Below, one piece after another: positions 55,132 through 56,677 of a DNA stretch of 64,000 nucleotides (its first letter is position 1; every line of letters starts with the position of its first letter). Both the position numbers and the translations under genes were made by a program. The notes beneath the pieces were generated by a model. That model was not told the origin of the DNA and made no database searches. It saw nothing but the letters and a program-made list of their open reading frames with translations. The stretch is from positions 2,880,001 through 2,944,000 of the forward strand of contig OZ220733.1 in assembly GCA_965116875.1 (NCBI GenBank), written 5' to 3'. This DNA comes from Candidatus Latescibacterota bacterium. GTDB taxonomy: Bacteria; Latescibacterota; UBA2968; GCA-2709665.

Positions 55132-55157
55132 TAGGTGAGAAAGCAAAGGAGATCGAT

Positions 55158-56348
55158 ATGACAGCACGTTTAGATGAATGGAAACCTGGTCCCGAGACGA
55201 TTGAATCTCTGTCCTCGCTGATCCGGTCAAAACCCGAGGAAGTCCGGTGGACGGAAATCGGATGGGATACCGACCTCTGGGCGGCCCGCCGCCGCGCGGC
55301 CGCGGTGCGGAGACCGTTGTTCATCTGGGCGATGAACGGCAACCCGCTCGGCTGTGTCTGAAACAACGGCATCGCGGGCCGTGAGTCCGTTTTCTCCCAT
55401 CCCGACATTATCCGGATCCTCAACGAATCCTACGTTTCGGTTGCGGACAACTGCAGCTATACCCAGACGCAGAAGGACGCCAAGGGCGAGTTCTTCCGCC
55501 TCGTGGCCGAACAGGGCCATTATGGTGGAGTCACCGAACCCACGGCCACCCGGCAGGGCCTGTACGCGTGCACGTCCGACGGCGAGTTGCTGGGGTCCAT
55601 CAACACGCGGGACGCCGCCCCGCTTCTGGAAGTGCTCGAGCAGAGCCTGGAAAGGTGGCGGAAACGCCCGGATGGCGGCGATTCGCCCGACATTTCCGAA
55701 ACCTATCCCGTCGATCCCAGGCTCGGATGGTCCTATCCGGAAAACGGCCTTGTGCTGAGAGTCACGGTTCGCGACCTTCCGCGGAACTCCGGCGACGTCG
55801 ACCCCCGGCACAACATCGACTTCGCGTGGTTTACCCGGGAGGAGACCCGGTCTCTCGCGCCCGGGAATGTCGTGCCCGGCCAGACCTGGCGCGCGCCGGA
55901 TTTCTTTACCAGACGTCTCGCCCTGCGCCACTTCATCGACACGGCACGCGGTCAATCGCCTGGATGGAAGGAAGAAAATCTGAAGGACGCGGAGATCCGC
56001 CTGACCGTCGAATCCGTCGAAACCGACTGCGTCCGGCTTCGCATGGAAGGACGCATCCACCTGGTGGGGGAACCCAGTTTCGAATCCAATCCCCACAGCG
56101 GCCTGACGGTTGACAAGCCGCGGGGTCTCGATTTGACCCTATATGGGCGCCTCGCGTACGATCCCCTGCGGCGGAGCTTTAATGCCTTCGATGCCGTTGC
56201 GACGGGCGACCGATGGGGCTGCACTACCTACAACGTTCGCTTCGACGACCCCGGCCCCGCGCCCATCGGTTTCGCCTTCGAACTCGCGTCGGACAATCCC
56301 ATCGAACGCACCCCTCCCGCATCCATCAGGCAAAATTACTTCGATTGA
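55158..56348 (+). CDS. Putative selenoprotein, thioredoxin-like fold, CxU motif (TGA at 55359-55361 read as Sec), 396 aa
   Basis: ORFs 55158-55361 and 55503-56348 are in the same frame. The 47 codons between them are open, giving ...RPLFIWAMNGNPLGCV-U-NNGIAGRESVFSHPDIIRILNESYVSV, a continuous Trx-like pattern. AAGGAG RBS at the 5' end. Confidence 0.8.
55365..55391 (+). promoter_or_regulatory. Candidate bacterial SECIS element
   Basis: Hairpin AACGG-CA-TCGCG-(GGC)-CGTGA-GT-CCGTT directly 3' of the TGA, with a G-initiated apical loop ~15 nt after the UGA. Confidence 0.55.
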
Positions 56349-56413
56349 CATTGCCATTGGGATGCTTCAGAAATATCGGATTGATGCAGCAGCCATTATC
56401 GCATACAAACGCG

Positions 56414-56446
56414 AAAAGCGCCCCGGTGAAGAGCCGAGGCGCTTTT
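56414..56446. terminator. Bidirectional intrinsic terminator
   Basis: AAAAGCGCC...GGCGCTTTT hairpin downstream of the putative selenoprotein gene. Confidence 0.6.
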
Positions 56447-56677
56447 GGTGTCAATTATACATGCCGCACATACGCCCAAACTGTCATCCTGAGGAAGCCC
56501 CCCAGGCTGACGAAGGATCTCCTGCGGCATGGTCGGATGTCCTGGCTACTTTGAATCGACAACACATCAGAAGCAGCACAAACGCGCAAGATTCGCGGGA
56601 GGCCGGCGAACATCGGGCGATCTGTGTCCAATCGGCGCCGGTGCGGGGTGAATAATGGCGCGAAACTTCCAAGCCTG

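Follow-up and report, generated by a model that had tools for sequence, protein, structure and literature searches.

The window, a stretch of 64,000 nucleotides from a Candidatus Latescibacterota bacterium (contig OZ220733.1), carries on its plus strand one reading frame at 55158-56348 in which the sole internal stop is a TGA at codon 68 (55359-55361). Read through this codon, the frame gives a product of 396 residues, from the ATG at 55158 to a terminal TGA at 56346-56348. If the internal TGA is taken as a stop, two open reading frames (ORFs) result. The first (67 aa, 55158-55361) ends with WAMNGNPLGCV-TGA, and the second (281 aa, 55503-56348) shares its frame and begins with a GTG at 55503, which gene finders would take as the start. 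Between the two lie 47 codons without a stop (55362-55502). With the TGA written as selenocysteine (Sec, U), the motif around the site is WAMNGNPLG-C-V-U-NNG. An initial annotation of this DNA had noticed that the two ORFs are separated only by a TGA and 47 stop-free codons of the same frame, and had proposed a selenoprotein of 396 residues; when the frame was re-read, the arrangement was found to be as described.

The conservation of the TGA was analysed in two sets of homologues. For the first, 61 genomes (that of the window and those of 60 relatives) were searched in all six frames. The gene is present in 42 of these, and each match that spans the site has exactly one internal stop, always TGA. 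All 46 site-spanning, full-length homologues have it at the same codon, within the motif G-C-[V/T]-U-N-N-G, a single copy reading S-V-U in place of C-[V/T]-U. For the second set, one genome per prokaryotic species was scanned with patterns taken only from the C-terminal domain, so that the Sec site had no influence on the outcome. This yielded 80 loci, with identities to the window protein down to 26%. Four of these do not cover the site, and the other 76 all have TGA there. As 24 genes are common to both sets, TGA is found in 98 of 98 distinct genes, far beyond a chance coincidence.

By record title, these TGA-bearing homologues belong to at least seven phyla. The window's own group is Latescibacterota, some records of which are titled Gemmatimonadota. 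Outside this group there are 52 loci in the second set, which are assigned to Armatimonadota (21), Planctomycetota (17), Poribacteria (7), Chloroflexota (2), Verrucomicrobiota (2), Kiritimatiellia (1) and Myxococcota (1), with one unclassified. In the window's phylum the gene occurs in 43 of 168 genomes and is concentrated in three families. The protein family as a whole comprises 1615 cluster representatives at E ≤ 0.001 and 164 at E ≤ 1e-30. In some genomes (G017, G029, G043, G054, G056) the gene is present as two or three paralogues, a TGA being found in each of them, and the paralogue pairs in G029 and G043 are spaced about 18-23 kb.

The TGA might be a true stop, so that the locus would represent a nonsense mutation, a pseudogene, or two genes of 67 and 281 aa. 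Gene callers do split the gene in this way, and nearly all database entries begin past the TGA: in public protein sets the family is found almost only as fragments, all named 'hypothetical protein', with matches starting at query residues 72-90 and a query coverage of 82%. However, the TGA is kept in all distinct genes and in several phyla, and conserved protein columns are found on both sides of it. The 47 codons from the TGA to the first downstream start are conserved as well and are part of one predicted domain, in keeping with the initial view that they continue the fold. A mutation or read error can be dismissed because the same codon would have been hit in 98 genes, and we consider a true stop to be extremely improbable. 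As gene callers stop at the Sec codon, the database fragments represent a systematic mis-annotation as short hypothetical proteins, which is what had been anticipated for automated annotation of this gene.

Homologues with cysteine instead of Sec also exist. We inspected 14 full-length entries without Sec at the positions of the C-x-U motif. The C-x-C form is found in P0039, P0145 and P0232, while P0092, P0149 and P0156 have Cys at the Sec position only. P0039 reads G-C-V-C and is 47% identical to the window protein over 307 residues across the site. The initial annotation had suggested to look for TGA or Cys at position 68 of the homologues, with conservation on both sides, and both are encountered.

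Selenocysteine insertion sequence (SECIS) elements of bacteria are hairpins just 3′ of the UGA with a G-U in the apical loop. For the region in question, 60 nt around the TGA were aligned from 46 relatives, which represent 39 distinct sequences. A stem of 6 bp (55374-55379/55385-55390) begins 12 nt after the UGA and encloses a 5-nt loop, CGUG[A/C], of which the bases CGUG are invariant across the aligned relatives. In the 39 distinct sequences, 234 of 234 cells (100%) form standard pairs, and in three of the six pairs both partners vary (G-C/G-U/A-U, C-G/U-A and G-U/G-C/C-G). The observed covariation score was reached by none of 500 shuffles, and controls slid along the alignment are only 23-59% paired. 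Changes in the stem alter the encoded residues (IAGRES, VVGRAL, VVRRER, VTGRAL) while the pairing persists. The Arg residue encoded by the loop has the codon CGT in 46 of 46 sequences, and CGT makes up only 14% of the Arg codons in the long ORFs of the genome. A comparison is available within the same genome, since its selD (L033:1528) is itself a selenoprotein gene with an in-frame TGA (ARTCG-U-AAKV). The selD SECIS has a 7-bp stem that starts 10 nt after the UGA and a GGUC loop, and in both genes the G-U of the loop is located 19-20 nt after the UGA.

The hairpin had initially been drawn at 55365-55391, with an apical loop starting with G. What stands of this is the conserved 6-bp stem, which is nested inside the drawn structure, but neither the outer stem nor the G-starting loop persists, as the actual loop starts with C. 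The outer stem (AACGG/CCGTT, 55365-55369/55387-55391) was rejected, as 73% of its cells pair, the same as in shuffles. We also rejected a 'terminator-like' site at 55372-55384 that was reported by a consensus scan. It consists of the SECIS stem and a T run, and such sites number 3 as compared to 2.3 in shuffles.

More remote subfamilies from Planctomycetota and Armatimonadota (L093-L142) have, at the corresponding site, different hairpins with GGUC-type loops, which lie over conserved V-W-S-D codons. The hairpin of the Armatimonadota type (GGUCU-GGUC-AGACC) is 96.8% paired with two covarying pairs, and the stem of the Planctomycetota type is 89% paired, without covariation. Judging from these alignments, the putative SECIS has been moved or remodelled within one gene family.

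The machinery for Sec insertion, which the initial annotation had proposed to look for as selA, selB, selC and selD, is complete in this genome. Genes for tRNA-Sec, selA, selB and a Sec-type selD were all found above curated cut-offs. The first three are located outside of the window in one cluster (C1:184343-187552; loci L001 and L027), where tRNA-Sec, selB and selA are arranged head to tail on the minus strand, with selD elsewhere. Of the 61 genomes searched, 56 have selB, including 41 of the 42 genomes that hold the gene. The single gene-holding genome without a selB match is an 80%-complete assembly, and the gene is absent from four of the five genomes that have no selB match.

A structure of the read-through product was predicted by AlphaFold2 with a 42-sequence alignment (predicted local distance difference test, pLDDT, 91.7; predicted template modelling score, pTM, 0.90). 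In the model, an N-terminal thioredoxin-like domain (residues 25-175) is followed by a C-terminal beta-meander domain. A strand (residues 54-59) leads into the loop N-G-N-P-L-G-C66-V-U68 and then into a helix (residues 69-78), and from this strand-loop-helix order the Sec is predicted to lie just before helix 1, the active-site place of the thioredoxin fold. The predicted topology, beta-alpha-beta ... beta-beta-alpha with the active site at the N-terminus of helix 1, is that of thioredoxin-like folds. Among the structural matches of residues 25-175, a DsbD-C-like domain (3f9u_B) scores 13.2 (root mean square deviation 2.8, 120 residues aligned), followed by AGR3 (3ph9_B, 12.0), DsbH (2ju5, 10.7) and two UAS domains (2dlx and 2ec4, 9.9 and 9.3), and Foldseek agrees with these matches. 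No clear match in the PDB was obtained for the C-terminal domain when the predicted model was compared with known structures, and when PDB sequences were searched with a profile, the single match was at chance level (E 0.35). The model thus agrees with what had been deduced from the letters, namely that the TGA falls at the redox site of a thioredoxin-like beta-loop-helix, two residues after a Cys, and that the C-terminal domain is rich in beta structure and of no clearly known fold.

The conserved UGA, the Cys homologues, the covarying SECIS-like hairpin and the complete Sec machinery together argue for a genuine selenoprotein gene, as originally proposed. As far as can be judged from sequence, the internal 'stop' almost certainly encodes selenocysteine. 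We consider it highly probable that 55158-56348 is a single gene for a selenoprotein of 396 residues, in which UGA-68 is read as Sec by means of the hairpin at 55374-55390. The product would act as an oxidoreductase with a Cys66/Sec68 couple. SelB with Sec-tRNA(Sec) would bind the short hairpin 12 nt past the UGA, with the G-U in its apical loop, and UGA-68 would thereby be decoded as Sec. Cys66 and Sec68 are predicted to reside in the loop before helix 1, where thioredoxin-fold enzymes hold their redox-active residues, and the enzyme may cycle between a selenolate/thiol and a Cys66-Sec68 selenenylsulfide. The conserved beta-meander domain could bind the substrate or a partner.

Several observations do not favour this interpretation. 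The stem of the hairpin has only 6 bp, the region 55350-55420 alone folds no better than shuffles (z 0.61), and a search of 55300-55480 against Rfam gave nothing at E ≤ 10. As the single-sequence fold is not more stable than that of shuffles, it is only the covariation that makes the case for the hairpin. The residue at position +3 after the Sec is Gly, and this is the position at which a CxxC enzyme carries its second Cys. No neighbour of the gene is conserved beyond the genus of the window (at most 13 loci when neighbouring ORFs of 54 loci were clustered), so that the gene context gives no functional clue. Among the entries without Sec, P0131, P0141, P0172, P0201 and P0169 have the first Cys only, with A, G, R, D and A, respectively, at the Sec position, and neither Cys is found in P0136, P0159 and P0261. 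From such full-length relatives without Cys at these positions, it seems that the fold also serves non-redox roles. Finally, two metagenome database proteins, P0047 and P0066, are printed with Trp at the site.

The two Trp-containing entries bear on the question whether the TGA is decoded without Sec insertion, either by reassignment to Trp or Gly or by unspecific read-through. The DNA behind them was sought in two metagenome scans, in which no relative was found. Their nearest genomic relatives (L090-L092, 41-45% identity) carry TGA. Some metagenome gene callers use a table in which TGA codes for Trp, and the W of both proteins may result from gene calling under such a table. In the genome analysed here, more long ORFs end with TGA than with any other stop (652 of 1194), this very gene does so as well, and tRNA-Sec is the only tRNA with the anticodon UCA that was found. 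These findings argue strongly against a reassignment of TGA. As selA, selB and selD are present and the covarying hairpin is positioned at the distance of a SECIS, decoding without Sec insertion is considered very improbable.

The main competing interpretation accepts the Sec and questions its role. The module could be a unit for the binding or sensing of a ligand, a metal or a metalloid, with the Sec (and Cys66) ligating or trapping a small molecule. The two-domain module forms the C-terminal part of Ser/Thr protein kinases (P0145, P0146, P0148, P0169) and of a FecR-domain protein (P0258), and is thus fused behind these and other modules as is typical for sensor domains. In addition, 8 of the 14 full-length relatives without Sec have no Cys at the Sec position while the polar motifs of their C-terminal domain are still conserved, and the spacing is CxU, not CxxC. 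On the other hand, the position predicted for the Sec is the one at which the thioredoxin fold classically has its active site, forms with CxC or a single Cys are found, and most of the selenoproteins with such motifs that are catalogued in a recent review are redox proteins (PMC13188914). We therefore regard a binding or sensing role in place of a catalytic one as unlikely, and favour the oxidoreductase. For the fused forms, their sequences suggest that the module is used as an extracytoplasmic sensor or binding unit.

Within the set of fusion proteins (P0145, P0146, P0148, P0169, P0258, P0232, P0133), one of the kinase fusions also has Kelch repeats, and the module can also precede a SecDF_P1_head domain or a PQQ/BamB-type propeller. 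At two loci, L109 and L093, no stop interrupts the frame for a long way upstream of the thioredoxin-like domain (1215 and 363 residues, respectively), and these may be long N-terminal fusions which still carry the TGA.

A leader-like hydrophobic N-terminus is found in most members from Planctomycetota, Armatimonadota and Verrucomicrobiota and in some from Poribacteria, which indicates that the family is largely extracytoplasmic. The window protein and its relatives from Latescibacterota lack a hydrophobic N-terminus. Having no leader peptide, the protein of this genus should be cytoplasmic, while most relatives of other phyla would be exported according to this leader-based prediction.

We compared the protein with known families. 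Scans of the read-through protein against Pfam and NCBIfam gave no family at E ≤ 1, and protein searches with names listed only 'hypothetical protein' among the matches. A full-text search of the literature revealed no description of the family, of its motif or of a bacterial SELENON relative. In the ESM Atlas, the truncated homologue P0029 leads to uncharacterised Planctomycetota clusters only. Table 1 of a review from May 2026 (PMC13188914) lists 119 prokaryotic selenoprotein families. None of those listed there with a Pfam, TIGR or NF identifier matches the protein, entries with only cd- or PTHR identifiers being outside the scan. A 'hypothetical' Sec candidate with a Cys homologue in a planctomycete is listed in Table S9 of PMC4807772, and it may or may not belong to the present family.

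The closest known thioredoxin-like systems are domains of the Thioredoxin_7, DsbD-C, DsbH, AGR/ERp19 and UAS types (PDB 3f9u, 2ju5, 7tkv, 3ph9, 1sen, 2dlx, 2ec4). However, no Pfam model of these matches at E ≤ 1, the motif is C-x-U rather than CxxC, and a beta-meander domain of 210 residues is added behind the thioredoxin-like domain. SELENOF (Sep15) shares with the present protein a CXU redox motif in a thioredoxin-like domain and is described as a protein of the endoplasmic reticulum (ER) (PMC9304195). The two proteins are very different in size and architecture. Pfam, which includes the Sep15/SelM family, has no model that matches the present protein. Four catalogued CxU selenoproteins from Table 1 of the review (PMC13188914), thioredoxin-like Sec.1 (PF13192), rhodanese-like form 3 (NF041203), UshA-like (NF041198) and ferredoxin-thioredoxin reductase (NF041072), are also bacterial or archaeal, have the Cys two residues before the Sec and use Sec decoding of the bacterial type, but none of their models matches at E ≤ 1 and their domain architecture differs. 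As checked against the catalogue entries with Pfam or NCBIfam identifiers, the family is new, uncatalogued and widespread, and belongs to the well-known thioredoxin-fold selenoproteins of bacteria.

As a thioredoxin-fold selenoprotein with a SECIS, the protein is ordinary in kind. It adds a widespread member to the selenoproteomes of several poorly studied phyla, and it defines a new C-terminal domain which also forms the outer part in Ser/Thr kinases and in proteins of the FecR type. As a bacterial model, it would make C-x-Sec chemistry accessible to tests, and perhaps also that of selenoprotein N.

Selenoprotein N (SELENON, SEPN1) has the motif SCUG with adjacent Cys and Sec, together with an EF-hand and a membrane anchor. 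The initial annotation had proposed a distant likeness to a redox motif of the SELENON type. What remains of this is a lead only: in the ESM Atlas, the cluster nearest to the full-length non-Sec homologue P0131 is a eukaryotic 'Selenoprotein N', with a score of 0.89 (188 of 256 features), below the tool's line of 0.9. UAS-type thioredoxin-like folds are among the structural matches of the present protein. The details of the motif differ, however, as C-V-U replaces the adjacent C-U, and the window protein has neither an EF-hand (0 Pfam matches) nor a hydrophobic N-terminal segment. In protein searches with names, no SELENON was found among the matches listed. SELENON has its Sec on the side of the ER lumen, within a thioredoxin-like 'CU' domain (PMC8148124), and SelN is described as one of the components added at the base of Metazoa (PMC7016017). 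We give even chances to the idea that the CxU family, many of whose members in Planctomycetota, Armatimonadota, Poribacteria and Verrucomicrobiota would be exported, is a bacterial sister of the Sec-containing thioredoxin-like domain of SELENON, with the Sec at the homologous position. If so, a soluble two-domain protein from bacteria would allow the chemistry of this human muscle-disease protein to be studied, and a prokaryotic origin would be documented for a selenoprotein that is considered a metazoan accretion (PMC7016017).

Table 1. Features of the selenoprotein gene and its flanks. Positions are those of the window.
Feature	Position	Strand	Observations
Shine-Dalgarno-like AAGGAG	55146..55151	+	6 nt upstream of the ATG, read directly
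Full coding sequence of the 396-residue selenoprotein (very probable)	55158..56348	+	One frame with one internal TGA; homologues match residues 1-396, each with one TGA
Thioredoxin-like domain (predicted), residues about 25-175; strand 54-59, Cys66, Sec68, helix 69-78	55230..55682	+	
UGA codon 68, read as Sec (almost certain), in G-C-V-U-N-N-G	55359..55361	+	TGA in 98 of 98 distinct genes; Cys forms known
SECIS-like hairpin, stem 55374-55379 (GCGGGC)/55385-55390 (GUCCGU), loop 55380-55384 (CGUGA)	55374..55390	+	Pairing and covariation
C-terminal beta-meander domain (predicted), residues about 190-396; conserved motifs RDLPR, NxDxxW, HxxDxxRG, GxRWG, NxRxDD	55725..56345	+	
Terminator-like hairpin followed by UUUUGG, about 60 nt past the stop	56409..56451	+	RNAfold -28.1 kcal/mol

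The neighbours of the gene are a topoisomerase IV/gyrase A-like gene, a short-chain dehydrogenase, an Ldh_2 dehydrogenase and a GFO/IDH/MocA oxidoreductase. An antisense ORF of 289 codons, which recurs in 31 loci, runs over the gene on the minus strand (55227-56096). Most likely it is not a gene but results from the conserved, GC-rich coding strand. The terminator-like hairpin downstream was not flagged by the consensus scan for terminators. With an A run and a U run at its sides, it resembles a bidirectional terminator. Given the AAGGAG before the ATG and this strong hairpin with its U run after the stop, the selenoprotein gene looks like a self-contained unit.
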